Source: Pyxidicoccus caerfyrddinensis (lineage in GTDB: Bacteria > Myxococcota > Myxococcia > Myxococcales > Myxococcaceae). Taken from it: DNA of 64,000 nt. Shown here piece by piece: positions 2,652 to 47,035 of the stretch. A program made the position numbers and the translations under genes. The stretch is taken from positions 111,494 through 175,493 of the forward strand of contig NZ_JAAIYA010000026.1 of the NCBI RefSeq assembly GCF_010894405.1, read 5' to 3'. Numbering within the stretch: position 1 is the stretch's first letter; every line of letters begins with the position of its first letter. A model generated the notes under the pieces. It did not search any database. It worked only from the letters and a program-made list of their open reading frames with translations, and had not been told where the DNA came from.

Positions 2652-3191
2652 ATGCGCATGCGAAAGCTGAGCTGGAGTGGCTTCGTGCTGTTCGGTCTGC
2701 TCGCCGGTTGCGCGAGCACGCCGGTGAAGGAGGAGCCGTCGGACGCCACCACGGAGGAGCGCCGTGAGGCGGAGGGCGGGGAGGAGGCGGAGGAGTCCAT
2801 CAAGAACACCACCTCCGAGGAGGGCAAGGCGCCCGTCCAGCCCATCATCGTGAGCGCGAGCCCGCAGGCGAAGGACCTCATCCGCATCGAGGGCATGCGC
2901 ATCCTGCGGGGCGTGCTGGACGTGAGCGTGTCCCACGGCGGCGGCTGCAAGGAGCACACGTACGCGCTGGCCTGGGACGGCACCTTCACCCAGGGCACGG
3001 ACGGCACGCCGGTGGCGAACCTGGTGCTGGTCCACGACGCCCACGAGGACCGCTGCAAGGCCATGAAGTACGCGACGCCGCGCTTCGACCTGGCGCCCAT
3101 CACCCAGGCCTTCCAGCAGAAGTACGGCAAGTCCACCGGCGCGGTGGACCTGGCCCTTCCGGGACAGGCCACCCTTCGCTACGAGTTCTGA
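2652..3191 (+). CDS. Lipoprotein of unknown function
   Basis: Signal peptide plus lipobox: MRMRKLSWSGFVLFGLLAGC/AST. GGAGG at 2647-2651 favours the second ATG at 2658 as the true start. An acidic low-complexity linker precedes a Cys-containing globular domain. The 3' end overlaps the convergent giant gene by 13 nt. Confidence 0.7.
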   Translation: MRMRKLSWSGFVLFGLLAGCASTPVKEEPSDATTEERREAEGGEEAEESIKNTTSEEGKAPVQPIIVSASPQAKDLIRIEGMRILRGVLDVSVSHGGGCKEHTYALAWDGTFTQGTDGTPVANLVLVHDAHEDRCKAMKYATPRFDLAPITQAFQQKYGKSTGAVDLALPGQATLRYEF

Positions 3192-9100: not shown

Positions 9101-11182
9101 CACCACCGGGAGCTCGAAGGGCGCGAGCTGTCGGCTGGCGCTGGGGTGGTTGGCGGGAGTGCGGCTCTGGGTGAGCGGCAGCGCCTGAATCCAGGGCAGG
9201 GCGGGGTGGCGCTTCCAGACGAGCGGCAGGTGGCTCGCGAACAGGGACGGGGGCAGCAGGTTCCGGTCCGCCATCGCGCGCAGCACCTCCGCGTCCGCGC
9301 CGTAGTCGAAGGACCAGGTCTTCAGCTGCGCGCTGGGGTGGGCGACCCGCCCCGGCCGGCGCTGGAGCTGCAGCGTGCCGAGCCCCGCCGTCACCACCGC
9401 GGGGAAGGCATCCTCCGGGGACACGCTTCGCAGCGTCACCGGGCGCAGGCCGCCAGCCCAGTCCTCCAGGTCCGGCAGGGCGTCCTCCGTGCGCGGCGCT
9501 TCGCTGCCCAGCCACACGAGGCCGCTCACGCGCACCTCGGGCTCATGCAGCACCAACTGCACCGAAGCCAGCGCGAGCGGCGCATTGGCGTTGGCGCGCT
9601 GCAGGCGCCACGTGCCGGTGAGCCCACCGAGGTCGGTGAGCGTCAGGCTCCACGACTGCTCGCCGCGCTCCAGCGCGCCGTCCTCCGGCTTGTCGTTGCC
9701 GTAGGAGACGGCGCCCTGGAGCCGCGGCTCGGGCAGCGTGTCCGTGCTGGGGAAGCGGGCGAGGCCGGCGTCCAGGTACATCTGCTCGGTGAGGTTGGGC
9801 ACCGGCAGCTGGGCCCAGCCGTCCTCCAGGCGCATGAAGGCCCAGAGCAGCGCGGGCTCCACGGGCTTGGCGGGCGTGGTGGCCGTGCCGGCAGTCCACT
9901 CGGGCGTGGGCAGCCGCTGCAGGCCGCGCACCAGCCTTGGCGTGTCCACCGGGCTGAAGGCGGCCCGCACGCCGGTGACGGTGAAGCCCTCCGTCCACTC
10001 CGGCTGGGCGCGGGTTGCCTGGTACTTCGCGCTGGCACCGCCCTCGGGGCCGCTGCGGAGCGTCACCTCCACGGTGCCATCCATGTGGCGGCCCACCGTC
10101 ACGTCCTCGGGGACGGTGCGCGCCAGCGAGGTGGGGGGCGTGCGCGGGTCGTACGGCGAGGCGTCGCTCAGCAGCAGCGCCAGCTCCTCACGGCCGAAGT
10201 GCAACTGGTGCCAGGTGGGCTGCTCCTGCCACGCCGGAATCTCCCAGGTCATCCGCGGCACCGTGCGCGGATTGACCACCTCCAGCGTCACCCAGCCGGG
10301 ACCCTGGGAGGCGGGGCCCTCCAGCTGCGGATTGCCAGGGTTGAGCGCGCTGGCGAGGCGCCCCCAGGACGCCGTCAGCGCGGTGCGCTCGACCGCGGTG
10401 AGCCGCTCCTCCTCGAGGGACAGCAGGTAACGCTGGAGGGTCGTCGTCCGCGAGCCCTCCGGCAGCACCGGCGCCAGGAGGAAGGGCGCGGCGAAGCGGT
10501 CCTTGCCCTGCGGCTCCCACGGCAGCGCGATGCGGCCGAACACCGACAGGCCGCTGGCATGCACGGAGAGCGCGGAGGTGAGGCACGCCGGGCCCGTGGC
10601 ATTGCGCGGCTCCAGTGGGGCCACGTCCAGCGTGAGCGCCCGGAACAGGCGGTCGCGCGCATTGTTCTGGGCGCACAGTTTGTCGAGGGGAATCTCCCCC
10701 GCGAGGCACGTCAGCTCCAGGTCCGACTGCCCCGACGCGGCGGGCGGGGTGCCCGCCCGGCCCGGGGCGCTGGCGGACCGGCCCGGGCCTCCCATGAGGA
10801 TGTCCAGCAGGCCGCGGCGCGAGTGCTCGTCCCAGTCCGTGGGGCGGGCCTGCACGAGCAGCAGCGCCAGGAAACCCTTCGTCACCTTGTCGTGCAGCTC
10901 CTCGGCCGTGGCGGGCAGGGACGGCGTGTTGCCGCCGCCGTCGTGCTCCCAGCGGTACTTCACGTCGCTCGGCGCCACCTCCACGGAGCGGACGTGGCAC
11001 AGCACCACCACCGTGGTGGGCGCGAGCAGCTGCTCGTTGTCCACCTCGCGCCCGTTCAGGTCGAGGAAGAGCTGGCGGAACGCGTAGGACTTCTTCGGGT
11101 CCTCGGCGCGCACCAGCTCCGCCTCGGCGCGCCAGAACGGGCCGCGGAGGACCACCTTCTTCAAGTCAATCGATGAAGACAT
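3179..11182 (-). CDS. Giant protein (2667 aa), unknown family; third gene of the giant operon
   Basis: Uninterrupted 8-kb ORF with native G/C third-position bias. AGGAG lies 8 nt upstream of the ATG, and the start is only 21 nt after the stop of the upstream 3472-aa gene. No signal peptide, TM segment, Walker A, HExxH or RHS/YD motif seen by eye. Confidence 0.85.
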   Translation of the reverse strand: MSSSIDLKKVVLRGPFWRAEAELVRAEDPKKSYAFRQLFLDLNGREVDNEQLLAPTTVVVLCHVRSVEVAPSDVKYRWEHDGGGNTPSLPATAEELHDKVTKGFLALLLVQARPTDWDEHSRRGLLDILMGGPGRSASAPGRAGTPPAASGQSDLELTCLAGEIPLDKLCAQNNARDRLFRALTLDVAPLEPRNATGPACLTSALSVHASGLSVFGRIALPWEPQGKDRFAAPFLLAPVLPEGSRTTTLQRYLLSLEEERLTAVERTALTASWGRLASALNPGNPQLEGPASQGPGWVTLEVVNPRTVPRMTWEIPAWQEQPTWHQLHFGREELALLLSDASPYDPRTPPTSLARTVPEDVTVGRHMDGTVEVTLRSGPEGGASAKYQATRAQPEWTEGFTVTGVRAAFSPVDTPRLVRGLQRLPTPEWTAGTATTPAKPVEPALLWAFMRLEDGWAQLPVPNLTEQMYLDAGLARFPSTDTLPEPRLQGAVSYGNDKPEDGALERGEQSWSLTLTDLGGLTGTWRLQRANANAPLALASVQLVLHEPEVRVSGLVWLGSEAPRTEDALPDLEDWAGGLRPVTLRSVSPEDAFPAVVTAGLGTLQLQRRPGRVAHPSAQLKTWSFDYGADAEVLRAMADRNLLPPSLFASHLPLVWKRHPALPWIQALPLTQSRTPANHPSASRQLAPFELPVVEMNGLTLPSGWRFGVTGTNGAAAWPRARGPQVPACEWKGRPDLPLVSLSLPGLVLKPGANASGLPLDAGTTLPVQLRLDLPYTDEPQALARLKPPTRRPDEVTPTADDSPPEPPRPLVRETLADHWSRLSELAVLASADAVDAFSSSGGAVRVQGLVEPHTWTVSPTLALGTYPGSLVVANAAGAPAASVELKGEAALEGFTGRFESADGGIRLAAGTPSADAYTLVAGSMAAHAKAGEGLRDQRGLWRKATRLVGTQLRTAVRLEGGAAVELVSTLEAVTLGLGKDPITGGALTWGLWFRDLPAAAGEFRRDSTRSAAAQDVNDPEAGSREHNVLNGYEWRLAPPTDVDAFTLFGLGFYPLTLERVRLDAAGVTRLELVGRVQLPLSGGGELVDLGNALRLTFERPPSGGGLALTAAALEASPGAPAECEWPLELANGELGDAPRLTVRSAALTPEKDGLRVDGVQLAFLLFGATWNVPLPALTFTGKASPLSVRMVPAELDAAEPLSPKEVAVELDPRGLEYRVSLLVDVRLGRALQEMPPGPRTRPVRWVPVVPGATAPGAVRPTATPVARSAFRAGVRFGVVGTSQDAAAVTFPGRGRAIWESGFLLDDLELERPPPEVALETGPGALQLTWSRYRAPMPSPGSSGLQLLPGMSLVGQDAPGFVALSFDVLLPATGVVDVPTLRLRTSFVEALLSCRWGTFLQAEPLPAQPTLAQVAGSSAGDLVFGYTGQSRDSTWTETLLLNGYLEVKDLLSYPASLQYDASKVTLTVPAAAGAVPLAHVRHTARILFNQHALPRDAFEVSAGDLLFRLSDGRSWQFLAVVEHQLVDVAPGEGFTTPRLSNDRRWTALQEVRIASPAGLKAFLQRFKDSDLHAVSPTDDVDPVGEVLAGYLGQEVRTMLAGGSAPELAALPAGTLLVEATALHWVKGEPVKATAATTLQFLPSGTQQALLSNPQDYGPTDPADPRWLLLVVPFLGRLQDRTRDGLEAPSGPASQLQVDPVLNLERRRKQPAALPPLALALSGWADRKAAAVTFTSLDTARARSWSRLDPLSLEESWFRVQHPLPEPRFDTLQSVLAARPETPARLSRATALQYAFDPVRNAYPPGQPKASGGVDPLPGQARLQWRPDALLALQAVLTQRGSSTPLPSGWLLTALQLVSGGWLRPSTATGTRRFPAATALAPRADAVRAPMSLAVSPYLGLGFRPAAPREDDIPELVVVELLCLDRTRRALLPAASHVKEGGEGLDAVRASAIAWAREMHRRLTPESPLAVLRFREVYRTVASGEDEAVLTTAYSFSLVPGLERTGGLSRRVLKLRSPPARLRFRDGHFGGQELPQEVRPLELAPPQVTGVQPIHRAHRPASGPQQQSPRDWPWGLSALRTTVHYTHEQEGATGTLGPRDGVPDKPFSLWWQALQHQVQFRSATSAAGPTAGLPPLFRARAIKGLLPVLPQLPLPLMSPRVLLNVDEPDRMKRWQPVLPGTVRFHLTGSRPGVMLAMRHQLLRQAGLDPTRDEAHRGQGMVSGSIPVQHRVPRPVPLRENDARHPGAALRTWASHFEPGHSVLATASPADEAFIASFGDGPVHRLRLVLEAPLHGAIPASWDGTLTLSADVNAGASLADWTLALEIPLDGKVFAYGPAEPAEGGRLGFKLAGTGGRSAEEVRADFSQRLAPGRVLAVHARVGRVTGAEGFIQTLTFPLRVVDPGVLPLPLEPVFLHFEDPEYNRHLASTTRRATQLVKTLDGTQKALHAVTLATDRGEYNPDSRMALRFDWDDGTTGLPALLSLLRVGPGGVTRPLSVREDGVDTPALTVAPERLREVSLLDLRDGTEPAVLGPGEALMLKLTLKALPEASSRVTENKDIFLTVGITAEPVTPVPEAAYALLRRQQPVEGDPQVECARFAWGPAPARVELVCPEDLRTEVVRRRAVFHWRDTVRTGTLRGYDIQKLTQSGATHIPGVTELPKPPPQNS

Positions 11183-11203: not shown

Positions 11204-14200
11204 TCAGAGCGGGCGGGAATCCAGCGGGTGGATGGGGCTGGGACGAGCGCTGCCCCGCCGGGCGCGGATGCCCAGCTTGCGGTCGTCCATGCCGCGCGAG
11301 TGGGACTGCTTGTGGAGCCGCTCCACCGCGGCCTTCTCGGCGCCGCGGGGGAACAGCGCGCGCAGCCGCAGCGCCTCGTCGCGCGTCATCAGCCCGTGGT
11401 AGCGCAGCACGGCCCCGCCGATGACGAGGCGCGCGGACAGCGGGTGCGCCGCATCCAGGGTGGGACGCAGCGGCGCGGTGAAGGGCACCTGGAGCACGCG
11501 GGCATCGAGGTCGGCGACGAGGGCCTGGAGCGCGGCGACGAAGGGCGCGTCACCGTCCAGCGCCAGCAACTGCTCGCGCTGTGTAATGTCGTCCAGCGGG
11601 CCCCTCCAGTGCACGGCCGTGGGCTCCACGGTGAGCCGCGCGGAAAGCGCGTCGGGGAGGTCGCCCTGGCGGGGCCGGCGCTTCACCGGCGCCAGGTCCA
11701 CCTCCTGGTCCACGTCCACCAGCTGGAGCAGCAGCCGCACCGTGCCCTGCCACTGCGCGTCCCCGGGCATGGCGAGCAGCGCCGCGCGCTGGGCATCGGT
11801 GGGCGCCGGGGCCGTCCACGTCACCGTCCCCGTCGCGAAGCGCAGCTGGGCGCGCACGAACTCGGGCAGCGTGTCCTCCGCGGGGCGCTCGCCCAAGTGC
11901 GGCACCGTCCGGTCCGTGTCGATGGCCGCGAGCAGGCGCGTGCGGGCGCCGAGGAACGCGGCGTCCCCGGCCAGCGCGGCCAGGGCCTCGCGCTCGGCGT
12001 CCGTGGGCGCGGGGCCCTTCCACCGCAGCTTCGCGTCGGTGATTCCGAGCCGGCCTCGCAGGACGGCTGGCAGCTCCCCGGCGAGGGGCCGGGCGGCGGG
12101 CAGCGGCCGGGTGGCCACGGCGGCGTCGAAGGCCTCCTTCAGCCGGGCGAAGGCATCGGCCAGGGCCGTCACCCGCACCCAGCGGTCGATTTCGAGCTGG
12201 TGCTCGGCCCACAGGTGCCCCTTCCACACCAGCGTGGTGTACGCGGTGCCGGCGGCGTCCGTGCGCAGCTCCACCTTCTGCGCGAGCGCCGGTGGCAGCT
12301 GCTCCGGCCCCCGCGGCGCCACGACGGTGGTGACGGTGTCTGCGCCCGCGCCAGCCGCGGTGGCGATGAGCGTCTCCACCGTGCGGCGGAGTTCCTCGTC
12401 GCCGGGCAGGGCGCGCAGCGCCTGGGCCTGTGCCGCGTCCAGGGGGCCCGTCCACACCAGCGGCAGGTCCTCGGGCTTCTCGAAGTCCACCACGTCAGCG
12501 AGCGACGCGGGCACGTCCATCGCCGAGGCCACGGGCACGCGGGCGTACCAACCGTCATGCACCCGGCCCACCGCCTGGCGGTCCAGCGCGTCCAGCACGG
12601 CGAGGTTCTGCCGGTCCTCGTGCGTGAGGACTCCCACGAAGGACAGCCGCCGCGCGTTGAAGGCCAGCTTGGAGCGGGTGGGCTCGGGGATGGAGGCCTG
12701 CTGCGGCGCCGTGTACGGGCGCGACAGCTCCAGCTCCGTCACCTGCTGCACGGTGACGGCCAGCAGGAAGCGGTCCTCCTCCGTGCCGAGGGGGACCTCG
12801 GGCAGCGACAGCGCGGCGATGTCCGCGAGGAAGTGCCCGCCGAGCTGCCGCTTCGCGAAGGCGCCTGCCGCCGCGTCGAAGTAGAGCTCCGCCTGCACCT
12901 CCACGTTGCCCTGGTGCTCCTCCACCACCTGGTAGACGACATCCAGGTCCGGCAGCCACGAGGGGCCGCGCCCGCCGGGCCGGGGCCGCTCGCTGCCCCA
13001 GCGCTGCTGAGCGCGCTCCGGCAGCGACTCCCACAGCCGCCGCAGCGGAATGCCCAGGCCCCGCGCGCGCACCGTCAGCCCGGACGCCGGAGTCGTGCCG
13101 CCGAAGGGCGGGGTCGGCACCCAGCCGGTGCGTGTCATGCCCTCCACCCAGGCCACGGGCTTCTCCGGCGCGCGGTACTCGAAGTCGCGCTGCCGCACCT
13201 CGTTGAGCGGGGACACGGTGCTGTGCGTCTGCGCCATCAGGAGGAGCCGGTGCTTGTAGTAGAAGGGCAGCCCCTCCCACTGGATGACCTGCGCGCCCTG
13301 CTGGAAGGCGCCCACCCGCAGCGGCAGGTCCAGTCCCCGCGCGTCCTCCACGCTCAGCCGCCCGGACAGGTCCAGGTGCTCCGGCTGCTCGGGGAGCGTG
13401 CCGGGGATTTCCGGCACGCGGTCCTCCACCGGCGTCAGCACCAGCGGCCCTGACAGGCCCGCGGCGCCCTCCAACGCGGACACCCAGCCTGGGAAGGCGA
13501 AGCCGCGCAGCAGTGTGAAGGCCACCTGCCGGAAGCCGAGCTGCCGCGCCAGCGTCTGGTTGCGCTCCATCAGCGCCTGCTCCGGGTGCTGGGCCACCAC
13601 CACCTCCCACGTGCTGCCGGGCTCGGAGGGCACCACGGGTGGAAGCGGTTCATCGGGAGCGGACGGCTCGAGCGGCGCGTCCGCGTCCAGGCGGGTGGAG
13701 CTGAGCACCAGCGGCATGTCCACGGCGCGGGTGCGGTCCATCACCACGTCGAGCCCGCCCGCGAGCGGGTCGGGCCGGGCGGGCTCCACGGCCGGGGCGT
13801 CCGGGTACAGGAGCGGCGACTGGCGCAGCCCCTGCCACAGCAGGTCGTAGCGCGCGAAGGGGCGCACGTAGAACCGGTAGTTGTGCGCCCACGCGTCCTC
13901 GAGGAGGTGGTCGTACGTCAGCCGGCCGCTCTCGTCCGGGCTGGAGTACGCAGGTGAGCTGGCGCGCGGGTACGCCGTGGCCACCCACGGCCCTTCGGGA
14001 GCCACGAGGGGGCCGTCCTGGGTGAAGTCGATGCGGCCGGTGGCGTCGAAGAAGCGCTGCGACCAGGTCAGCACGTCCGGCAGCACGTCCTCCAGCGCGC
14101 TGCCCGAGGCGGGGATGCGAATCTTCTGCTCCGCGGGCATGCCCGGGTCGGTGCTGGAGAGCGACTCCGCGTACCGCCGGAAGCGCCGCCACTGCACGGC

Positions 14201-17200
14201 CTCCGGGCGCAACTTCTCGTCGGACGTGTCTTCGTCATGGGCGAGGAGCGCGGCCAGCGGCTCGACGTCGGCGGGGAAGTAGGTGGTGCGCTCGTCGGTG
14301 ACCTGGAAGAGCGGCTCCAGGCGCATCCCCAGGAGGGCGGTGAGCGCGGCGGGCTCCTGGGCGAGCGTCGTGCGCAGCAGCGCGCGCGCGTCGGCGGACA
14401 GCGTGTGCGGCGACTGCGCCAGCACCAGCTCGGCGGCCGGCGTCTCACGGTACGTCACGTAGGCCGGCAGCGGCTCCTGGGTGAGCAGGGCCTGCGCCTC
14501 CGGGGACAGGGGCCTGCCCAGGGCCACGCCCGCGCCGGGCAGGTCCGCGAGCGACAGCGCCTCCGCCGCGCTGCGCGTCCTCAGCAGCACCTGCGTCTTC
14601 CCATTCAGCGGCAGCACGAAGGTGCGCTTCGACACCGTCCCGGTGGTGGCGCCCGGCTCGGGCTCCAGCTCCGCCTGTCCGGCGGCGGGGTTCGTCTGCT
14701 CCACCACGCTGCACGTGGTGGCCGGCTTCAGGTGGAGGACGACGTCCAGCGGGGCCCCGGCGGGGCCTTCCAGGTGGATGGCCGAGTACAGCGCGCGCTG
14801 TCGCACCACCGGCCGCAGGCTGAGCTGCACCAGCGCGAGCAGGTCCTCCGCGACGACGGCGCCCTCCCGCAGCGCGACGGCACGTCCCGGCTGGAAGAGC
14901 AGCTCGACATGGAGGTGCCGGGCCGCTTCGTCCGGGAGGACGCCCTGCTGTGCCAGCACGTCACGCACGGCGTCCAGCAGGGCCTGGCCCTTCAGCACCT
15001 CGCCCGTCCGCGGCTCGCGCAGGCTGAAGGCCATGCTCAGCCCCAGGCGCTGGAGCACGCCCCAGCCGTACGGGTCCGCCTGAGCCGCCGTGGCGCGCAG
15101 CAGGTCCGCGAAGCTGCCCGGCTGGGTGGGCGGGCTGATCTGCAGGTCCACGGTGAAGGCCGGCAGTTGCGAGTCCCCGGCCGGGCGCTGGAGGCGCTGG
15201 ACGATGCCCGCGAGCACCGGGTGCAGCGCGCTGGTGCGCGACGGCGCGGGCGAGTCCGTCAGGCCTGGCCAGTGCGGCCACTCGAGGAGGGACTCGCGCC
15301 AGGACGGACCGGGCGTGAGCGAAAGCTGCGAGCCCGCCGCGCGCGCGGCCGGCGTGCGGCGCCGCTGCAGGGTGCTGGGGTACCAGGCCTCCCACGCGCT
15401 GGTGGCCAGCGTGTCACCGGGGACGAGTTGCATGTCCCCGGCCGGCAGCATCTGCACTTCCTGCAGGCCGCGCAGCGCGCGGGACAGCCGGTCCGCGTCG
15501 CCGAACGTCTCAGTGGTGTGCGCGTCGGTGTCCAGCTCCAGCAGGTGGTAGCCGGCATGCAGGTCCAGCGGGTGGTCCGGCGCGCCGCTGGGGCCCTGGT
15601 TCCACCGGAACCGGATGCACCGCACGCCCGCCGGGTGCTTCTGGTGGAGCACCCCGGTGAGCTGGCCATTGAAGCGGAAGGCCTCCGGGTGGCCCACGGT
15701 GCCCACCGGCATGGGGAAGTGCGCGTCCTCCACGGTGGCGCGTACGTCCTCGGGCGGCAGCACCGGCAGCACCACCGGCGAGGGCAGCCACTCCAGCTCG
15801 GCGGGGCGGCGCTCCTCGCGGCGGCGGTTGTCCGTGTCGTCCGCGGGGGCGTCCGCGCGCACCACGCGCAGCAGCAGCTGCACGGGTGCGAGCGCGGAGG
15901 GCACGCCGTTGCCCGACTCCGTCTGCATGAACAGCCGCCAGGCCTCGGGGCGCCAGGCATCATTCTCGGCGGGGAGCACGCGCAGCTCGCGCAGCTTCGT
16001 GAGCGGCACCTCGGCGACGCGCTTCTCGCGGGGGCCGGTGGGCACCACGGTGACGCGCACGTCGGTGGGCAGTGGCCGCGCGTTGCTGGTGGGCAGGGAG
16101 CGGGCGCCGGCGCGCTGGGTGGCGCTGTCCAGCCCGTAGCTGCCGATGGGCAGCGACGTCTCGCGCCGGAAGACGAGCACGTATGTCTTCACCGGCACCT
16201 GCGGCTGGCCGGGCGCTGCGGATGGTTCGGACCACTCCAAGAAGACGCGGTCCGGCGTCACCACCCTCGGCGTCCCCACGTCGCGCCGGGCGAGGATGGC
16301 GAGGTCCACCTTGTAGCGGACGACGCACTCGGCGTTCACCGGCACGAGCGGCGGCTCGCTGGGGTAGCGCGTGGCCACCACCGTCAAGGGGCGGCCCGCG
16401 TTGCCGGCGAAGTCGTAGGGCGTAATCGTGTAGAGGTAGCTGCGGCCGCTGAGGGGCAGCGCGGCCAGGTCCTCCGCCGTGTCCTCGTGGAAGTGGTCCA
16501 CGAGCTGGAAGCGCGGCTGCAGGCGCTTGAGGGCGCCGCCCTCGCGGTGCAGCGTCTGCGCGCCCTTCAGCGTGTAGACGGCTTCCGGGGTGTTGCTTTC
16601 CAGCCCGCGGCGGCGGACGTGGTAGTGGACCAGGTGGTGCTCGGGCGAGGCCTGGGCCGGCGTCAGCCCCGCGCGCGGGGGCTGCTCCCAGACCAGCTCC
16701 CACGCCAGGGCGATGGTGCGCGCGTCGGTGAGCTGCTGCACCCGCCGGAACTGGGGCGGATTGCGCGTGAAGTTCGTGTCGCGCACGTTGAAGGTGCGCA
16801 CCGACACCTCGGACCCGGAGCAGGTGGTGTCCTCCACGCGGATGCGCTGGCGGAGCCTGGGCTCGGGCTCACCCCTCTCGGGCACGCCATCCAGCCACGC
16901 GGGCAGGCCACCGCTCACGCGGAACACCAGGCCCATGTGCAGCGCGACGGAGCGCTCACGCTGCTCCGGCGTCAGGCCGCTGCCGTCCGGCGACGCGGCC
17001 AGCGCGCGCAGGTCCGCGACGATGTCATGCACCACCATGCCGCGCAGCTGGTGCGCCTGCTGCTCCTCCAGCATCTTGCGCAGGCCCGGCGCATCGTCCG
17101 GGACCTTGCCGTCGTCGGAGTACACGGTGGTCCTGTCCTGGTACGCCTGTCCAAGCAGTCGGTCGTACTCCACCCGCGTGTCGTCGCGCTTGAAGAAGGG

Positions 17201-20200
17201 CGAGCCCCGGAACTGCTCCACCGCGCCGCGCACCGCGGCCTCGAAGGCGTTGTCGGTGGGGTTGTGGACGCGGTCGTCCGCCACCACGTCCTCTGACCGC
17301 GTCGGGGGCAGGCGAGCCGGATCTCTCAATCGAATGGTGGCACCCAGCGCGTCCACCTCGGTGACGAAGGCATGGCGCAGGTAGCGCGCCAGCGTGAAGG
17401 TCTCGTCCCCCACCTCGGGCACGCCCGTCTCCGAGTACCTTTCCCCCTTTTTCTCCAACTCCGTCTCCCAGTGGGCGCGCCACGCCACGTCCTGGGAGGG
17501 CTGACCGGGGGTGGGCGCGTGGGGCTTCCACATGCCCGTGAGCGGGTCGAGCTGCTCCAGCGTGTACGTGTCCTTCGCGGCCCGGGGCACGGTGAGGACG
17601 AAGTCGTTGTAGCCGGGCTGAGCCCACGCACCCTCCGCGGGCGGCACGGGCAGGAAGCCGGGCTCCTCCTCCACCTCCCCGCTCGGGGTGGGCCGCTCGC
17701 CCTGTGGCATCAGTACGAAGTAGTGGGTGCCCTTCGGGTCCTCGGAGCGGATGGCGAACACCGTGTAGCCCGGGGCCTCGAACGTGCCTTCCGCCAGCGT
17801 CCGGCGCTGGAGGGCCGGGGGTGCTTCTTCCGTACGAAGGGTGTCGGCGCGCAGGGCGGCGGGCGCGGGACGGCCGCTCCGGAGGGCGGCGCCCTCGACG
17901 CCGGGGATGCCCTCGACGTCGGTGGCTTCCAGTCCGTAGTCGAGCACGTGCTTCGTGCGCTCCAGGGCCTCGGCCACCTTGCCCTCCCTCATACCGATGT
18001 GCGCGCTGAGGTGGAAGCTGCGGCCCATCACCGACAGCGACAGGGTGCCGGTGCCGCGCAGGCCGATGCCGTTGGGGGACAGGCCGACCATGCCCACCTC
18101 CAGCCCGGCGGTGAAGTCGATGCCGAAGCTGAAGCGGAACGACTTCTTTATCTTGATGAAGCCCAGCTTCAGCTTGATCCAGAACTCGATGGCGAACCGG
18201 ATGTGCGCCTCGATGCCGATGCCGCCGTAGAGCGCGGAGCTGCCCACCGGGTCCTTCAGGCTGAGCAGGCCGATGTAGCGGGCGCCGTATGCGAGGCTGG
18301 CCTGGGCGCTGACGCGCACACCGACGATGCCCAGGTTCACCTGGGCGCTGAAGTCCAGCTTCGCGCGGGCGAGGAAGCTGGTGCCGGTGACGAGCTCCTC
18401 GCGCGACAGCCGCCAGATGAAGCCGCCGCGCAGCTCCGCCTCCAGCGGGCCCAGCTTCTGGCTCCAGCGCAGCATGTTGGGCCAGCCCAGCTCGTAGTGC
18501 AGCAGTCCCGGCTCCACCAGCAGGGTGGCGGAGAACTGGCAGCTGGTGAGGGCCTTCTCCACGAACTCCGGCAGCTGCGGGTGGGGCCCGAGCTGGCCGT
18601 TGGGGTTGGAGGCCACGTGCGCCAGCAGCCGCTTCTGCCGCGGTGACAGCAGCACGAAGCCGGAGACGAAGGGGCGCTCGCGCAGGCCTTTGTAGTTGCT
18701 GACGTAGTCGTAGTAGTTCGCGTTCAGCCAGCCGCGCACCGCCATGAAGAACGTCAGGTCGCTGCGGAAGGCGATGACGGCGTCCAGCAGGAAGAGGCAG
18801 GAGATGAGCTTCTCGGCATTCTCATCCCACTGCAGCGGCGACGCGGACGCGGACGTCTGGGAAATCATCGCGCGCAGCACGATGGTCCACCGCGGGTCCT
18901 GTCCGGGGTCCTCCAGGTCCAGCGCCCACCGGTCCCGCTTGGAGAGGTCACCCTGCGTGCGCGACAACTTCTTGAGCTCCTTCAGCAGCTCGCGCACATC
19001 GTTGGCCTGGTCCGCGGCCTTGATGCTGGCCAGGGTGTAGCGGTACCCGAAGCCCAGGCCCACCTCGCGCACGTACAGCTGCACGACGGGAATCATCAGG
19101 CTGATCTGCCGGGCCTCCAGGTAGATGAACCAGGCGCGCAGCCAGGGCGAGGACTCGTCGCGGCGCACGCGCAGGAAGGAGAAGGCGGCGGCGAAGGTGG
19201 GCAGGCCCTGAATCTGGAGCGTGCCCTCGCCGGAGAAGCCCTTCTCCGTGGTGCTGTCCACGAAGTCCACCACGCCGTTGAGGCGGAAGGCGGCGCCGAA
19301 GTTGAGGTTGACCGGCAGGTTGCCGAAGTGGAGGCGCGGCAGGAAGTGGCCCTCCTCCGGCAGGCCGATGTAGAGCCGGTGGTAGTCCACGCGGGTGTCC
19401 GGCGTGTCGCCCGCGCCCTGCGCGAACTTGAGCTGGCCGGTGAGCAGCATGGCCCCGTCGCCGCCGAAGACGTCGGCCTGTGGGATGAAGCCGATGCCGC
19501 GCAGCTCCAGCTCGAAGCAGCCCAGGAAGCTGAAGGACAGCGGCTTGGGCAGCTCGATGAGGAAGCGCACGTGCTTGGAAATGACGCGCGCGTCGCCGGT
19601 GAGCGGGCACTCCACCAGGTCGATGCGCAGCTTCGGCAGCAGCGCCAGCGCACCCTCCGCGTCGTCGCTCTCCGCGAGGCGGAATTGCGCGCTGCCGGTG
19701 AGCACGAAGTACAGGTGGAAGCGCCCATCGTTGACGAAGCGCAGGCCGATGGCGTCCACCTGGAACTCGAAGCGGGTGCTCTGGCAGTGCAGCAGCTTGG
19801 AGCCCCGCAGGCGCGCGCCGCCGGACACCAGCGTCAGCGCTCCGTCGCGCTGCGCCAGCTGCAGCGAGATGTCCGCCATGGCGTCGCCCACCAGCGCGGG
19901 CGGCATCGGTCCGGAGCCGTTGAGGGTGAAGTCCTGGACCCGGTTCTCCACGATGACGAGCCGGCTGTCATTGAAGCGGAAGCGTGTGTCCAGGCCGTTG
20001 AGCTTCGCGGGCCGGTCGGTCACCGTCGCGGTGACGTTGAGCCCCTTGGGGGTGAGCGCGAAGTCGGTGATGGCGAAGACGATGGGCTCGTCGCTGACGT
20101 GGAGGTACTTCACCTCGAAGGACGCGCCGGGAGCCTGCTGGAGCTGGTAGTTGTACTTGTCCGTGGCCAGCGTGAAGAGGTGGTAGCGCGTCTTGCCGTT

Positions 20201-21622
20201 CTCGGTGATGGGCGTGCCCTTGAAGCCCCAGGTGAGGCCCAGGTACTCCACGGGCTTGCCGTTCTCGTCCTTCGGTGCCAGCTCCGCCTCGTTCGCGTAC
20301 AGCTTGAGGCCGTCGCTGTGCCGCACGGCGAAAGAGAAGGTCTCCCAGTTGAAGGCCAGCTCCGCGGTGGTCTCCAGGTTGAGCGGGCCGAAGCTCACCT
20401 TCACCGTGACGGGCACGGCGATGGAGTGGTTGGGGATGTCCAGGGTGATGGCGCTCAGGTTCGGCTTCACCTGGAGGAACTGCGGCGCGTCCTCGCCGCC
20501 CGGCTCCTGCTTGAGGAAGGGCAGGGTGAAGGGCGCCTTCTCCAGGTTCAGCTTGAAGCCGAAGCTCCAGTCCTCCGCCCGCATGCTGAAGGAGTCCGTG
20601 GCGGTGGGCAGGCACAGCGTGTCGGGGTCGCCGTAGTTGAGCGGCTCCAGCGCGGTGGTGAGCTGGCGGAGGAAGTGGGGCAGCCGGGCCTCCTTCCACT
20701 CGAACTCCGCCAGGGCCAGCGTCACGCGCTGTTTCGCGGCGATGGACAGCTGGAGCAGCGGGTCTGGCGACGCGCGGCCCTGGTCGGCGTGGACCTCGCG
20801 GCCCTCGTCGCGCTCCCAGGCGAAGTCGCTCGTCACCGTCAGACCGGAGCCCTCGGCGAAGGTGAGGTAGAGCCCGGCCTGGCTCAAGGAACGGTCGTCG
20901 CCCTCCGCCTTGGCGTTCACCACGACGCTGAGCTGCGTGTCGTCCGGGAGCTGGAGATTGAGCCCGGGCAGGGGCAGCGCGCGGCCCATGCCGCCCAGCT
21001 CCACGTCCACGCGGACCTCGCGCAGCGGCTGTCCGAACACGAGGCGGAAGGTGATGGCCTGCCGCGCGAAGGTCTGCCGGTCGAGCTGCTCCCAGGTGAG
21101 GGCGAGGCACTCGCGGCCGAGGTGGAAGCCGGCGATGTCCAGCTCGCTGCCATGCTCGAACAGCCCGGGCAGGAAGGCGCGCAGGCGCACGTCGGTGGCG
21201 GTCAGCTCCAGCGCGCTGCTCACGCGCAGGGTGCCCCGGAACGAGAAGCCGGGGGCCTCACCCGCCCCGCCGTCCAGGCCGAGCTGCCCCGCGTCCAGCT
21301 GCACGCAGATGGGGATGTCGTGGAGGATGAGCTCCAGCTCGTCGGTGAACCTCACCTCCGCGCGCAGGAAGGTCAGCCCGTCGCGCACCTCGCCCACGGT
21401 GAGCCGCGCGCCGTCCTGGCCGGCCAGCGGCACGGACAGCTCGCCTTCGATTCCCAGCCACGCGGTGGCGTCGAGCGTGCCGTTCCCCGTGCGCGCCTCG
21501 TAGTCGAGCACGTGGACGCCGCCGAAGAGCTGGCGCAGCGCGGGTTCTGGGAACATGCCGCCGGGAATGGCGGTATCGGCGAGGAAGCCATCGAGGCGAC
21601 CCAGGGAGCGGTAATAGGGCAT
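11204..21622 (-). CDS. Giant protein (3472 aa), unknown family. N-terminal ~1200 aa is rich in amphipathic beta strands, the middle carries FN3-like modules, and the C-terminus has six ~70-aa tandem repeats
   Basis: Uninterrupted 10.4-kb ORF starting 15 nt after the stop of the 757-aa gene. Motifs: AIEFWIKLKLGFIKIKKSFRFSFGIDFTAGLEVGMVGL (alternating polarity); SGRSYLYTITPYDFAGNAGRPLTV (FN3 F/G-strand-like); repeated LxWxGPxxxxxxxxLxxLxGD units near the C-terminus. Confidence 0.85.
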   Translation of the reverse strand: MPYYRSLGRLDGFLADTAIPGGMFPEPALRQLFGGVHVLDYEARTGNGTLDATAWLGIEGELSVPLAGQDGARLTVGEVRDGLTFLRAEVRFTDELELILHDIPICVQLDAGQLGLDGGAGEAPGFSFRGTLRVSSALELTATDVRLRAFLPGLFEHGSELDIAGFHLGRECLALTWEQLDRQTFARQAITFRLVFGQPLREVRVDVELGGMGRALPLPGLNLQLPDDTQLSVVVNAKAEGDDRSLSQAGLYLTFAEGSGLTVTSDFAWERDEGREVHADQGRASPDPLLQLSIAAKQRVTLALAEFEWKEARLPHFLRQLTTALEPLNYGDPDTLCLPTATDSFSMRAEDWSFGFKLNLEKAPFTLPFLKQEPGGEDAPQFLQVKPNLSAITLDIPNHSIAVPVTVKVSFGPLNLETTAELAFNWETFSFAVRHSDGLKLYANEAELAPKDENGKPVEYLGLTWGFKGTPITENGKTRYHLFTLATDKYNYQLQQAPGASFEVKYLHVSDEPIVFAITDFALTPKGLNVTATVTDRPAKLNGLDTRFRFNDSRLVIVENRVQDFTLNGSGPMPPALVGDAMADISLQLAQRDGALTLVSGGARLRGSKLLHCQSTRFEFQVDAIGLRFVNDGRFHLYFVLTGSAQFRLAESDDAEGALALLPKLRIDLVECPLTGDARVISKHVRFLIELPKPLSFSFLGCFELELRGIGFIPQADVFGGDGAMLLTGQLKFAQGAGDTPDTRVDYHRLYIGLPEEGHFLPRLHFGNLPVNLNFGAAFRLNGVVDFVDSTTEKGFSGEGTLQIQGLPTFAAAFSFLRVRRDESSPWLRAWFIYLEARQISLMIPVVQLYVREVGLGFGYRYTLASIKAADQANDVRELLKELKKLSRTQGDLSKRDRWALDLEDPGQDPRWTIVLRAMISQTSASASPLQWDENAEKLISCLFLLDAVIAFRSDLTFFMAVRGWLNANYYDYVSNYKGLRERPFVSGFVLLSPRQKRLLAHVASNPNGQLGPHPQLPEFVEKALTSCQFSATLLVEPGLLHYELGWPNMLRWSQKLGPLEAELRGGFIWRLSREELVTGTSFLARAKLDFSAQVNLGIVGVRVSAQASLAYGARYIGLLSLKDPVGSSALYGGIGIEAHIRFAIEFWIKLKLGFIKIKKSFRFSFGIDFTAGLEVGMVGLSPNGIGLRGTGTLSLSVMGRSFHLSAHIGMREGKVAEALERTKHVLDYGLEATDVEGIPGVEGAALRSGRPAPAALRADTLRTEEAPPALQRRTLAEGTFEAPGYTVFAIRSEDPKGTHYFVLMPQGERPTPSGEVEEEPGFLPVPPAEGAWAQPGYNDFVLTVPRAAKDTYTLEQLDPLTGMWKPHAPTPGQPSQDVAWRAHWETELEKKGERYSETGVPEVGDETFTLARYLRHAFVTEVDALGATIRLRDPARLPPTRSEDVVADDRVHNPTDNAFEAAVRGAVEQFRGSPFFKRDDTRVEYDRLLGQAYQDRTTVYSDDGKVPDDAPGLRKMLEEQQAHQLRGMVVHDIVADLRALAASPDGSGLTPEQRERSVALHMGLVFRVSGGLPAWLDGVPERGEPEPRLRQRIRVEDTTCSGSEVSVRTFNVRDTNFTRNPPQFRRVQQLTDARTIALAWELVWEQPPRAGLTPAQASPEHHLVHYHVRRRGLESNTPEAVYTLKGAQTLHREGGALKRLQPRFQLVDHFHEDTAEDLAALPLSGRSYLYTITPYDFAGNAGRPLTVVATRYPSEPPLVPVNAECVVRYKVDLAILARRDVGTPRVVTPDRVFLEWSEPSAAPGQPQVPVKTYVLVFRRETSLPIGSYGLDSATQRAGARSLPTSNARPLPTDVRVTVVPTGPREKRVAEVPLTKLRELRVLPAENDAWRPEAWRLFMQTESGNGVPSALAPVQLLLRVVRADAPADDTDNRRREERRPAELEWLPSPVVLPVLPPEDVRATVEDAHFPMPVGTVGHPEAFRFNGQLTGVLHQKHPAGVRCIRFRWNQGPSGAPDHPLDLHAGYHLLELDTDAHTTETFGDADRLSRALRGLQEVQMLPAGDMQLVPGDTLATSAWEAWYPSTLQRRRTPAARAAGSQLSLTPGPSWRESLLEWPHWPGLTDSPAPSRTSALHPVLAGIVQRLQRPAGDSQLPAFTVDLQISPPTQPGSFADLLRATAAQADPYGWGVLQRLGLSMAFSLREPRTGEVLKGQALLDAVRDVLAQQGVLPDEAARHLHVELLFQPGRAVALREGAVVAEDLLALVQLSLRPVVRQRALYSAIHLEGPAGAPLDVVLHLKPATTCSVVEQTNPAAGQAELEPEPGATTGTVSKRTFVLPLNGKTQVLLRTRSAAEALSLADLPGAGVALGRPLSPEAQALLTQEPLPAYVTYRETPAAELVLAQSPHTLSADARALLRTTLAQEPAALTALLGMRLEPLFQVTDERTTYFPADVEPLAALLAHDEDTSDEKLRPEAVQWRRFRRYAESLSSTDPGMPAEQKIRIPASGSALEDVLPDVLTWSQRFFDATGRIDFTQDGPLVAPEGPWVATAYPRASSPAYSSPDESGRLTYDHLLEDAWAHNYRFYVRPFARYDLLWQGLRQSPLLYPDAPAVEPARPDPLAGGLDVVMDRTRAVDMPLVLSSTRLDADAPLEPSAPDEPLPPVVPSEPGSTWEVVVAQHPEQALMERNQTLARQLGFRQVAFTLLRGFAFPGWVSALEGAAGLSGPLVLTPVEDRVPEIPGTLPEQPEHLDLSGRLSVEDARGLDLPLRVGAFQQGAQVIQWEGLPFYYKHRLLLMAQTHSTVSPLNEVRQRDFEYRAPEKPVAWVEGMTRTGWVPTPPFGGTTPASGLTVRARGLGIPLRRLWESLPERAQQRWGSERPRPGGRGPSWLPDLDVVYQVVEEHQGNVEVQAELYFDAAAGAFAKRQLGGHFLADIAALSLPEVPLGTEEDRFLLAVTVQQVTELELSRPYTAPQQASIPEPTRSKLAFNARRLSFVGVLTHEDRQNLAVLDALDRQAVGRVHDGWYARVPVASAMDVPASLADVVDFEKPEDLPLVWTGPLDAAQAQALRALPGDEELRRTVETLIATAAGAGADTVTTVVAPRGPEQLPPALAQKVELRTDAAGTAYTTLVWKGHLWAEHQLEIDRWVRVTALADAFARLKEAFDAAVATRPLPAARPLAGELPAVLRGRLGITDAKLRWKGPAPTDAEREALAALAGDAAFLGARTRLLAAIDTDRTVPHLGERPAEDTLPEFVRAQLRFATGTVTWTAPAPTDAQRAALLAMPGDAQWQGTVRLLLQLVDVDQEVDLAPVKRRPRQGDLPDALSARLTVEPTAVHWRGPLDDITQREQLLALDGDAPFVAALQALVADLDARVLQVPFTAPLRPTLDAAHPLSARLVIGGAVLRYHGLMTRDEALRLRALFPRGAEKAAVERLHKQSHSRGMDDRKLGIRARRGSARPSPIHPLDSRPL
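11207..12460 (-). repeat. Six protein-level tandem repeats (~68-76 aa each) forming the C-terminal 418 aa of the 3472-aa protein
   Basis: Repeat starts: LVWTGPLDAAQAQALRALPGDEEL / LVWKGHLWAEHQ / LRWKGPAPTDAEREALAALAGDAAF / VTWTAPAPTDAQRAALLAMPGDAQW / VHWRGPLDDITQREQLLALDGDAPF / LRYHGLMTRDEALRLRALF. Each linker ends in an acidic residue followed by LPxxLxxxL. Coordinates come from my residue counting. Confidence 0.7.
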
Positions 21623-21637: not shown

Positions 21638-23911
21638 CTACGAGAGGGGAAGCTCGTCGGGGCGGATGACCCACAAGGTCCCGACGATGCGGTTGTCCCA
21701 GGTGACGGAGTTGGCGGCCCAGGTGGTCTGCGTCTGGGCCCAGTTCTGGCCGCGCAGCGCCTGGATGTTGGCGTCGTTGACGCCGTTGAGCGCGCGCTGT
21801 TCGACCTGGTAGCGGTCGATGACGTAGTCGCGCAGCACGTTGTGCAGGGGCGACACCAGGCACCCCGCGGAGCCGGTGCCGGTGTTCTGGCCGCTCATGG
21901 TGCCGCGGTGGATGCGGACGTTCACCTTGCCGCCGTGGGTGGGTGACGTCTGCGGGTCGTGGCCCGCCTCGGGCACGTCCTCTGTGACGTGCTCGCCGAA
22001 GTAGAAGCGCGCCTCGCGTAAGCCGTCGTAGGCGGTGACGTCCGGGTCCACGACGGTGAAGGTGTAGTTGCGGAACTGCGGGCCACTGCCCGTTCCGGGC
22101 GAGCGGTAGCTGGCCCAGTGGTAGCGGCGGTTGCCCCGCACGGACGACAGGTTCTGGTCGTTGGCAGGGTAGTTGCGCGAAGTGAAGCTGGTGTAGCGCA
22201 CCTGCGCGTGCACCTCGCCGTTGTGCACGACGAACATCACCCCGTCGTAGTGGTCATAGAAGCGGGGGTTGGCCGGGGTGGCGGGGACGGCCGGACCCAG
22301 GTCATAGGCCAGCGCGGGCAATTCGCCGCTGAGGCCAGCGGGGATGTGCCAGGCGGAGGTTCCGCCGCCGAAGTCCGGGTTGCCGTCCAGGGTGAGGGTG
22401 CGCTGGACGCGGTCGAAGGCGGTGATGCGGTAGGTGCGGCGGGGCCGCGCGGTGTCCGAGGGCAGGTAGACGGTGTCGAAGCGCGCGTTGAGCTTGTTGA
22501 TGTTGGGGGTGCCGTCCAGGCGCACCGTGTTGTCCGCGGTGCGCGTGGCGGAGGCGCCCTGCAGCCGTCCGCCCAGCGGGTCGATGAGCACCAGCACCTG
22601 CCGCAGGCTGATGCGCCACGGGGACGGATTGCCGCCGAGGTTGGGCTCGCTGGCGCCGGCCTCCAGCGTCACCTGCCGGTTGGCCACGTCCACCGCGGTG
22701 ATGCGGTACCACTTCCGGGGGCGCGCGGTGTCCGCGTCGAGGTAGAGCAGGTCCTTCCCGGCGCGCACCCGGCTCAGGTCCATGGTGCCGTCGAGGGTGA
22801 CCTGGTTGCCCGCGGCGGTGGCGGCGGCGCCCTCCGGGTCCAGGAAGTCGATGGTGGTGGCCGCCGTGGGCGTGCCAGGCACCGCGCCGGCGAGCCAGGG
22901 GTCGTCGAAGAGCGAGTAGAACTCGACGATGGCCTCGAGCTGGAAGAGGTTGAGCGCGTCGCGGTCGTTGAACTCGAAGGGCGGGGCGGTGCTGCCCGCG
23001 GGGGCGTGGCCCGCGCGCTTGAGGAGCTGCTCGCGGTAGAGCGCCTTCTGGTGGTTGCCCACCTGCCGCCACTGCGCGGCGGTGAGGTGGAGGCGGTCCT
23101 TCGCCTCCTTGAGCACGCTGAACGGATAGAGCGACGCCTGCACCAGTCCGAGCAGCGCGGCCGGCGTCGCCGCGTCGATGACGGGCCACTTCCTGGGCGC
23201 GAGGGTGAGGAGCTCATCCACCTTCGGCTGCCCCTCCTCCACGAAGTCGCGCATCACGTCGTAGAGGTGCGACGGGTCCGTGGTGCCGGAGAAGGTGAGC
23301 ACGGAGAAGCCCACCTCGCGGGTTCCCGCCTGGCCTGCGACCGGCGCGGCCCGGCCGATGGCATGTCCCGCCGTCACCGGCACGTCCACCTGCCCGCGGA
23401 TGAGCAGGTCCACCACCCGCGCGCGGTTGAGGCCCTGGTTGGGGATGAGGAAGTCCAGCTGCTCCGCCAGCGCGGCCTCCAGGGAGCCCGTCTCGATGTC
23501 CAGGTAGATGAAGCCACGGAGGCCGCCCAGCTGCTGCGCGCGCTGTTGGAAGGCCTGCGCGCCCGTCATGACGAAGGACGGGTGGAGGTACAGCTTCACG
23601 CGGGGCGGGAGCGGCTCGTAGTCCTCGGGCAGGTCGAAGGGCTCCGTCGGGTCGGGTGCTCCACCCAGCGGCGGGCGCGCGGACAGCGTGCCGGCCATCA
23701 CCGCGAGAAGCTGCCCGGTGTCGGTGGTACGGAGCCGGAGGTGGTCGCGGAAGGCGTGCTGAGGCCCGGGCGTGGACGGGGCCGGCCCATAGCCGTGGAC
23801 GCGCGTCCATGGCGTGGGGGCGACGAAGGGCGGGTTGATGAACAGCCGGAGCGGTTTGGCCAAGCGCGACTCCCCCTCAGATTCGCGTCGATGCGGCGCT
23901 GACGCTTCCAT
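21638..23911 (-). CDS. 757-aa protein of unknown family with an internal duplicated module and a C-terminal YkuD (L,D-transpeptidase)-like His/Cys motif; first gene of the giant operon
   Basis: ORF with native codon bias and no signal peptide (MEASAPHRRESEGESRLAKPLRLFINPPF). C-terminal motif VNVRIHRGTMSGQNTGTGSAGCLVSP. A 122-bp divergent intergenic region lies upstream. Confidence 0.8.
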   Translation of the reverse strand: MEASAPHRRESEGESRLAKPLRLFINPPFVAPTPWTRVHGYGPAPSTPGPQHAFRDHLRLRTTDTGQLLAVMAGTLSARPPLGGAPDPTEPFDLPEDYEPLPPRVKLYLHPSFVMTGAQAFQQRAQQLGGLRGFIYLDIETGSLEAALAEQLDFLIPNQGLNRARVVDLLIRGQVDVPVTAGHAIGRAAPVAGQAGTREVGFSVLTFSGTTDPSHLYDVMRDFVEEGQPKVDELLTLAPRKWPVIDAATPAALLGLVQASLYPFSVLKEAKDRLHLTAAQWRQVGNHQKALYREQLLKRAGHAPAGSTAPPFEFNDRDALNLFQLEAIVEFYSLFDDPWLAGAVPGTPTAATTIDFLDPEGAAATAAGNQVTLDGTMDLSRVRAGKDLLYLDADTARPRKWYRITAVDVANRQVTLEAGASEPNLGGNPSPWRISLRQVLVLIDPLGGRLQGASATRTADNTVRLDGTPNINKLNARFDTVYLPSDTARPRRTYRITAFDRVQRTLTLDGNPDFGGGTSAWHIPAGLSGELPALAYDLGPAVPATPANPRFYDHYDGVMFVVHNGEVHAQVRYTSFTSRNYPANDQNLSSVRGNRRYHWASYRSPGTGSGPQFRNYTFTVVDPDVTAYDGLREARFYFGEHVTEDVPEAGHDPQTSPTHGGKVNVRIHRGTMSGQNTGTGSAGCLVSPLHNVLRDYVIDRYQVEQRALNGVNDANIQALRGQNWAQTQTTWAANSVTWDNRIVGTLWVIRPDELPLS
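22337..22807 (-). repeat. Tandem duplication of a ~65-68 aa module inside the 757-aa protein
   Basis: Copy 1 is NQVTLDGTMDLSRVRAGKDLLYLDADTARPRKWYRITAVDVANRQVTLEAG...SPWRI (22604-22807). Copy 2 is NTVRLDGTPNINKLNARFDTVYLPSDTARPRRTYRITAFDRVQRTLTLDGN...SAWHI (22337-22531). The DNA cores also match (GGTGATGCGGTA...CGCGCGGTGTCCG). Confidence 0.75.
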
Positions 23912-45130: not shown

Positions 45131-45155
45131 ACACCTCCGGTTGACGGACGGCTTT

Positions 45156-47018
<1,863 letters not shown>

Positions 47019-47035
47019 ATCGGACGGGAACTCCT

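Follow-up and report, generated by a model that had tools for sequence, protein, structure and literature searches.

The described systems that come closest to the protein analyzed here are the AsmA-like and repeating-beta-groove (RBG) proteins (TamB, YhdP, YdbH; VPS13, ATG2, BLTP1/LPD-3), the large plugged outer-membrane beta-barrels (LptD, TonB-dependent receptors, the PapC/FimD ushers, SprA, and Deinococcus SlpA), the class of ApoB100, MTP, and vitellogenin, the Tc/ABC toxin complexes, which are signal-less multisubunit machines that breach envelopes, and the phage ejection or tail proteins with M23/LytM or lytic domains (phi29 gp13 and the cyanophage A4 pre-ejectosome protein). The protein in question, which we call giant A, is encoded on the minus strand (11204..21622) of a 64,000-nucleotide (nt) stretch from Pyxidicoccus caerfyrddinensis (contig NZ_JAAIYA010000026.1, positions 111,494 to 175,493). 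This stretch, hereafter the window, to which all coordinates refer, is a Myxococcaceae chromosome segment with a G+C content of 72%, and its proteins match the species exactly. Giant A is 3,472 amino acids (aa) long, starts with an ATG codon, has a G+C content at third codon positions (GC3) of 0.95, and is exactly WP_164000171.1, a RefSeq "hypothetical protein". We report that its first third is predicted to be a large amphipathic beta module, that it belongs to a widespread protein family, and that its gene forms a cassette with that of a second giant.

The N-terminal all-beta amphipathic module covers residues 1 to about 1245 of giant A (17888..21622, minus strand). When the beta-type hydrophobic moment was computed at 170 degrees in a 9-residue window, residues 1 to 1211 scored 1.159 vs. 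0.877 ± 0.033 in 200 shuffles (z = 8.5), while the corresponding z was 0.6 for residues 1212 to 2400 and 3.2 for residues 2401 to 3472; the helical moment was not elevated in the same analysis. An AlphaFold2 model of residues 165 to 1260, produced from an alignment of the query and 51 relatives (52 sequences), has a mean predicted local distance difference test (pLDDT) score of 87.2 and a predicted TM-score (pTM) of 0.61, with 54% strand and 9% helix. It displays 48 strands of at least 6 residues, with charged positions numbering 9 out of 253 on one face and 71 out of 251 on the other. As an independent check, we performed mean-field direct coupling analysis (DCA) on 157 family sequences (effective number, Meff, 135). 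This recovered the antiparallel registers of a meander at residues 1051 to 1211, with z values of 3.6 to 9.9 for adjacent ladders, including a full 24-pair ladder. Among non-adjacent ladders, z reached 5.1 for the next-but-one strand pair 454-467/502-510 and was at most about 3.4 for all others. Since the moment, the modeled strands, and the DCA ladders agree, the amphipathic beta character of the module is real. These findings bear out an earlier sequence-only reading of this DNA, which had proposed a long run of amphipathic strands and quoted four peptides, all of which are present: LTGSAQFRL (residues 641 to 649), LLTGQLKFA (726 to 734), GTLQIQGLPTFAAAFSFLRV (800 to 819), and AIEFWIKLKL...GMVGL (1144 to 1181), the last at 18080-18193, about 20 nt off the 18100-18215 originally quoted.

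In the model, the module is a large multisheet up-and-down antiparallel beta fold, the predicted strands of which have one uncharged and one polar face. Its eight-strand up-and-down meander at residues 1051 to 1211 (17990..18472, minus strand; strands 887 to 1047 by DSSP of the model) is made of hairpins of 13 to 24 residues and contains the AIEFWIKLKL... segment. One face of the predicted meander is without any charge over 10 to 12 alternate positions per strand and, since its strands reach 21 to 24 residues, such runs would create very large apolar surfaces. The meander is followed by an amphipathic closing helix at residues 1213 to 1229 (17936..17986, minus strand; model 1049 to 1065) and then by a disordered Ala/Pro/Arg-rich linker with a pLDDT of 30 to 33, the model being disordered past residue ~1245 (model 1081 to 1096, pLDDT < 50). 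The extent first proposed for the module, 17990-21622, needs correction at its end, which lies at residue ~1245 (17888), after the closing helix, and not at residue 1211. No internal repeats were found by hhalign among seven segments of the module, all probabilities being below 10%, which is weak evidence as RBG repeats are often undetectable by sequence.

To define the family, we searched 1.84 billion representatives exhaustively with HMMER, using residues 1 to 1200 as the query. This returned 438 clusters at E ≤ 1e-3, including 320 at E ≤ 1e-30, and nearly all full-length members are 3,300 to 4,400 aa long. A word-indexed homology search found nothing with residues 1 to 1260, and only fragments of at most 651 aa with residues 690 to 1075; since the collection searched contains hundreds of giants, such a negative for very long proteins does not equal absence. 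The family occurs in Myxococcota, Actinomycetota, Cyanobacteria, and Proteobacteria and on rhizobial plasmids. Giant A from Archangium minus is 62% identical over its full length, and a genome scan revealed homologs with 50 to 65% identity in 18 Actinomadura/Spirillospora genomes. Plasmid-borne members are found on 11 rhizobial, Undibacterium, or Cupriavidus plasmids, eight of which are conjugative, and no phage genome was found with the module. All the named members, which include proteins from Crocosphaera, Bradyrhizobium, and one metagenome-assembled genome, are annotated as "hypothetical".

Conservation is highest in a family core at residues ~460 to 1245 (17888..20245, minus strand), over which distant relatives (33 to 39% identity) align best, many of them with shorter matches further along. 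The consensus shows near-invariant columns in the motifs FTLTGSA, CPLTGD, FLIELPKP, FEMELRxIGF, REVGLGFGYRYT, DPRWT, RSDLTF, and ELGWPN. The DNA at 18001-20000, which encodes part of this core, has a G+C content of 0.68, compared with 0.74 to 0.75 in the remainder of both giant genes, and residues 1101 to 1200 are relatively rich in Lys (6%) and aromatic residues (11%). The alignment of most relatives begins around residue 165 to 200. Residues 1 to 164 (21131..21622, minus strand) are specific to a sub-lineage and alignable in few relatives, namely from residue 2 to 5 in four of them (P0006, P0013, P0020, and P0032), over residues 3 to 111 in P0037, and from residue 1 in Archangium. No signal peptide or transmembrane helix was detected in this part by a hydrophobicity scan, the best 19-residue window of giant A reaching only 1.58, at residues 942 to 960, which is not N-terminal. 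Similarly, none of 97 full-length relatives reaches a Kyte–Doolittle value ≥ 2.0 in its first 90 residues, and none has a convincing transmembrane helix. The earlier remark that giant A has no N-terminal anchor was therefore right and extends to its relatives.

Elsewhere in giant A, four helical repeats of ~50 to 70 residues, with the signature W-x-G/A-P...A/E..AL..GD, are found near the C-terminus (residues 3057 to 3358; 11549-12454, minus strand), a region in which tblastn aligns relatives at multiple offsets. The extreme C-terminus, IRARRGSAxPS, is kept across the family. In one relative (P0036), a LysM domain is inserted where the query has residue ~2615. Another, a 5,296-aa protein from a Logan assembly (P0005), has an N-terminal fusion (its residues 1 to 2177) that displays the nucleophile-elbow motif GHSTAG; an alpha/beta-hydrolase assignment for the fusion was below threshold (E = 0.002), and this added part could represent a partner of the lipase or esterase type.

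We then searched for known domains. At E ≤ 1, the whole of giant A matches nothing in Pfam-A, where AsmA, TamB/DUF490, and Chorein are represented by models; nor does it match any NCBIfam family, any PADLOC model, or, at a significant level, any PHROGs profile. The second giant, giant B, has no match in Pfam, NCBIfam, PADLOC, or PHROGs either, and sequence searches of the Protein Data Bank (PDB), whether with single sequences or profiles, returned no match for either giant. We found no account of the giant A family in the literature on giant bacterial proteins, RBG proteins, and DUF6603. The protein family, its fold arrangement, and its operon architecture, which are absent from Pfam, NCBIfam, PADLOC, PHROGs, the PDB, and the searched literature, are thus undescribed, although by function the family may still fall into a known class, for example toxins or envelope-remodeling machines.

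Giant A is the middle one of three minus-strand genes in series, which are separated by 15 and 22 nt according to GC3-based gene calling. The start of giant B (3179..11182, minus strand; 2,667 aa, WP_164000169.1, RefSeq "hypothetical protein") lies 22 nt past the stop codon of giant A. Giants A and B are not paralogs. A large second open reading frame (ORF) directly 3' of giant A is present in every locus readable at that position. In the Actinomadura/Spirillospora loci that reach it, the only ones in which its homology to giant B was compared, this ORF is a giant B homolog with 39 to 46% identity. In the metagenomic, Bradyrhizobium, Crocosphaera, and plasmid loci, its size lies between about 2,000 and over 3,300 aa, and the Crocosphaera giant B contains a Laminin_G_3 domain. 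In Rhizobium leguminosarum pRLN3, giant A is followed by an unannotated 8.3-kb gap, which makes the position unreadable there. The Undibacterium plasmid pUYM01 (L031, 23763-31417) has two ORFs of ~1,280 aa in the place of giant B, which may be a split giant B, and an IS66 element just upstream of the cassette.

The gene adjoining the giant pair varies, yet genes for envelope-active enzymes recur independently in this neighborhood. The Pyxidicoccus, Archangium, and Crocosphaera neighbors belong to the 740- to 806-aa family of the upstream gene in the window, the Pyxidicoccus and Crocosphaera proteins being 40% identical. In the Spirillospora locus L007, a phospholipase D (PLD)-like gene with an HKD motif (PF13091 at 3e-15, and PF00614) lies directly upstream, and the other Actinomadura/Spirillospora loci have an equally long ORF in that place, with a shared, conserved N-terminal sequence in the eight that were translated. 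One metagenomic locus has a 559-aa Peptidase_M23 protein directly upstream. Elsewhere, there is an M23 peptidase about 9 kb downstream of giant A in pRLN3, PLD-like (about 7 kb), S8, and M20 hydrolase genes upstream in Mesorhizobium pOM4, and a polysaccharide deacetylase gene downstream in Bradyrhizobium.

The upstream gene in the window (21638..23911, minus strand) lies 15 nt from giant A and encodes a 757-aa protein, which RefSeq annotates as a 741-aa "hypothetical protein" (WP_164000173.1). The family consensus begins with KPLxLF, which fits the RefSeq start rather than the first ATG. Five residues (H668, S681, G683, C684, and R694) are invariant in 28 homologs, with the His and Cys 16 residues apart (His-x15-Cys), and this C-terminal His...(S/T)xGC...Arg set matches, at the level of sequence, the arrangement typical of YkuD L,D-transpeptidases. 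The Archangium homolog is named "YkuD domain-containing protein" in UniRef, while other homologs carry PG_binding_1 or CBM_4_9. The protein itself has no Pfam match. Its model contains an M23/LytM-like beta fold, but we detected no profile similarity to a genuine M23 neighbor protein, and the M23 zinc ligands (HxxxD and HxH) are missing, the N-terminal halves of the 28 homologs sharing neither an invariant His nor an invariant Asp. Should the N-terminal domain be the LytM-like one, it would probably be degenerate, as in EnvC or SpoIIQ. The ORF also contains two internal repeats of ~90 residues (YLDADTARPRKWYRITAVD... and YLPSDTARPRRTYRITAFD...), modeled as small beta-barrels. A homolog of the C-terminal 540 residues, with PG_binding_1, is encoded in Micromonospora fluostatini (L030; CP191251.1, 1-15926) in another operon, which contains a DUF6603 protein and 737-, 1,654-, and 629-aa proteins without Pfam domains but no giants. 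The enzyme module seems to be common to different large-protein systems.

On these grounds, our best, still tentative, reading is an undescribed two-giant cell-envelope machine in which the module would serve as the sheet platform that engages the envelope. Giants A and B, often joined by a cell-envelope hydrolase, would act as one cassette. The apolar sheet faces would make contact with a lipid bilayer, enter it, or hold lipid, and thereby anchor the complex at the membrane. The enzymes (M23/LytM- and YkuD-like, M23, or PLD), together with LysM-type domains, would act on peptidoglycan or lipid. The envelope attacked or remodeled might be the producer's own or that of another cell. Several observations weigh against this proposal. 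Giant A, giant B, and the 757-aa protein all have neither a signal peptide nor a transmembrane helix, which leaves their route to the envelope unexplained, and strands of 20 to 24 residues far exceed what a bilayer needs. Moreover, the many invariant charged residues of the core suggest a tightly packed globular interior, PLD-family domains can be nucleases too, and in Cupriavidus and in locus L028 the giant pair stands alone, with no enzyme neighbor.

The main rival explanation, which we consider somewhat unlikely, is a soluble scaffold, in which the apolar faces would be the module's own core of stacked beta-sandwich or closed-barrel domains, forming a rigid body that holds the rest of giants A and B without lipid contact. 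Any two-layer beta protein shows alternating polarity, and a pLDDT above 90 over most of model residues 640 to 1050 is what would be expected of a well-packed core. The many invariant Arg, Asp, Glu, and His residues, the short helices interspersed in residues 865 to 1030, and the lack of any detected transmembrane helix or signal peptide in the family are in keeping with a scaffold, as are hints from DCA of an additional contact between strand 936-957 and 1022-1047, by which the sheet may fold back on itself. The looser idea, raised by the sequence-only reading, of a module that interacts with membranes or lipids is not refuted. The more specific options of that reading fared worse, since the predicted fold is an up-and-down antiparallel meander instead of a beta-solenoid, and we found no profile or fold match to beta pore-forming toxins (MACPF/CDC, aerolysin, or leukocidin) or to Tc/RHS toxin shells (TcA/TcB or RHS-YD).

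An intracellular conflict or anti-phage system, in which the giants would be cytoplasmic sensors or scaffolds, the variable enzyme (PLD or peptidase) a suicide effector, and the module a recognition or oligomerization body, would account for the patchy spread over four or more named phyla, the presence on conjugative plasmids, the singleton 90% clusters of Pyxidicoccus, the variable enzyme neighbor, and the export signals that were not found. It would also fit with the UvrD/PD-(D/E)XK, EAD7-kinase, WYL, or NYN genes sometimes present in the neighborhood, and PLD domains are frequent nuclease effectors. We nevertheless regard it as improbable: PADLOC models match none of the three proteins, Pfam reveals neither an NTPase nor a nuclease domain in about 6,100 residues of giants, and the associated domains (LysM, PG_binding_1, CBM_4_9, Laminin_G_3, M23, and polysaccharide deacetylase) are of an extracytoplasmic type, directed at peptidoglycan or glycans. 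Less probable still, to the point of being very hard to sustain, is the analogy originally drawn with RBG proteins, i.e., a bridge-like lipid transporter as in TamB/YhdP/AsmA or VPS13/ATG2, with lipids sliding in a continuous hydrophobic groove. It can draw on the many consecutive amphipathic strands, uncharged on one face, on marginal Foldseek matches to ApoB100 (E = 1e-4), MTP (E = 0.02), and LPD-3/BLTP1 (E = 0.02), and on the presence among the best Foldseek matches of LptD, the N-terminal domain of which is a lipid-carrying beta-jellyroll. Yet it failed in every comparison that was made, whether of family profiles, of TamB by hhalign, of membrane anchor, of fold, of taxonomy, or, as weak evidence, of repeats.

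A bolder form of the envelope-platform proposal, which we consider doubtful, is that the giants and an interchangeable peptidoglycan- or lipid-active partner would constitute an undescribed, widely transferred, secretion-signal-independent envelope-penetrating machine in monoderms and diderms, the N-terminal module of which would be a new membrane-inserting or lipid-holding platform unrelated to Omp85 barrels, RBG bridges, and known pore-forming toxins. If this were true, all domain databases would have missed a family of 3,000- to 4,400-residue proteins that comprises at least 438 sequence clusters, and there would be a new mode of cell-envelope engagement in soil predators, actinomycetes, cyanobacteria, and rhizobial conjugative plasmids. 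This would matter for work on myxobacterial predation, competition between bacteria, and plasmid biology, and would bear on very large amphipathic beta-sheets beyond the Omp85/BAM and RBG paradigms. Even a conservative reading yields a new all-beta architecture, predicted with high confidence, and a defined three-gene cassette, with an enzyme whose invariant His668/Cys684 pair is open to mutation.

In the window, the cassette is flanked by ordinary housekeeping and regulatory genes, including those for a GT4 glycosyltransferase, a sigma-54 activator, an SPFH protein, and an aminotransferase. A divergent 390-aa ORF (24034-25206, plus strand) has no Pfam match and contains YFAYIYYNVGPG, which resembles the AYNAGPG motif of lytic transglycosylases; the ORF in the equivalent position in Archangium (374 aa), also without a Pfam match, contains AAYNWGPDN. 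The idea of a lytic transglycosylase, prompted by the string YNVGPG, was dropped, as the 390-aa ORF has no Pfam family and no detectable homology to the Archangium ORF. Some 3 kb from the cassette, a 449-aa protein (26792-28141, minus strand) has a C-terminal NADase_transloc / F5/8 type C (discoidin) domain (PF25302, E = 5e-15), a type of domain known from translocated NAD-glycohydrolase toxins. Two neighboring large Hsp70-like genes (42353-47414, minus strand) encode proteins of 936 and 752 aa, the first with a C-terminal DUF3731 "DnaK-related" domain.

How, then, does giant A compare with the described systems? It shares with AsmA-like and RBG proteins the run of amphipathic strands, the apolar face, the giant size, and an envelope context. 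In contrast to them, its module makes up only the first third of a 3,472-aa protein that is paired with a second giant, and its strands are up to 24 residues long. The family has no N-terminal membrane anchor and no detectable repeat unit, and resembles them neither in sequence nor in profile: when aligned by hhalign with Escherichia coli TamB, the family profile (A4) gave a probability of 0.26% and an E-value of 0.23. There is no convincing structural match to the beta-taco or repeating-groove fold of TamB, VPS13, ATG2, or LPD-3. Moreover, while RBG/AsmA proteins are restricted to double-membrane cells or organelle contact sites, the giant A family is also present in monoderm Actinomycetota.

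When the model of the module was submitted to Foldseek, the largest known barrels ranked first (SlpA, LptD, and PapC/FimD), with ApoB100, MTP, and LPD-3 behind, and all TM-scores were between 0.05 and 0.23. Unlike outer-membrane barrels (Omp85, LptD, TonB-dependent receptors, and ushers), giant A has no Sec signal peptide, and its strands depart from the ~9- to 14-residue spanning strands in a closed barrel. Since it has no signal peptide, has strands twice the membrane-spanning length, and occurs in monoderms, the module is not a canonical outer-membrane protein. ApoB100, MTP, and vitellogenin are similar in displaying long amphipathic sheets in a giant protein, with Foldseek E-values of 1e-4 to 2e-2 for this class, but TM-scores were 0.05 to 0.11 with probabilities of 0.2 to 0.5, there is no sequence relation, and these are eukaryotic secreted proteins. 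The closest structural analogs of the module, all of them weak, are the walls of transmembrane barrels and lipid-binding sheets (LptD, SlpA, ushers, TonB receptors, ApoB100, and MTP). Our reading of the model is that its extended curved +1-meander sheets, which have no true structural relative in the PDB, are closer to such barrel walls and lipid-binding sheets than to soluble sandwiches.

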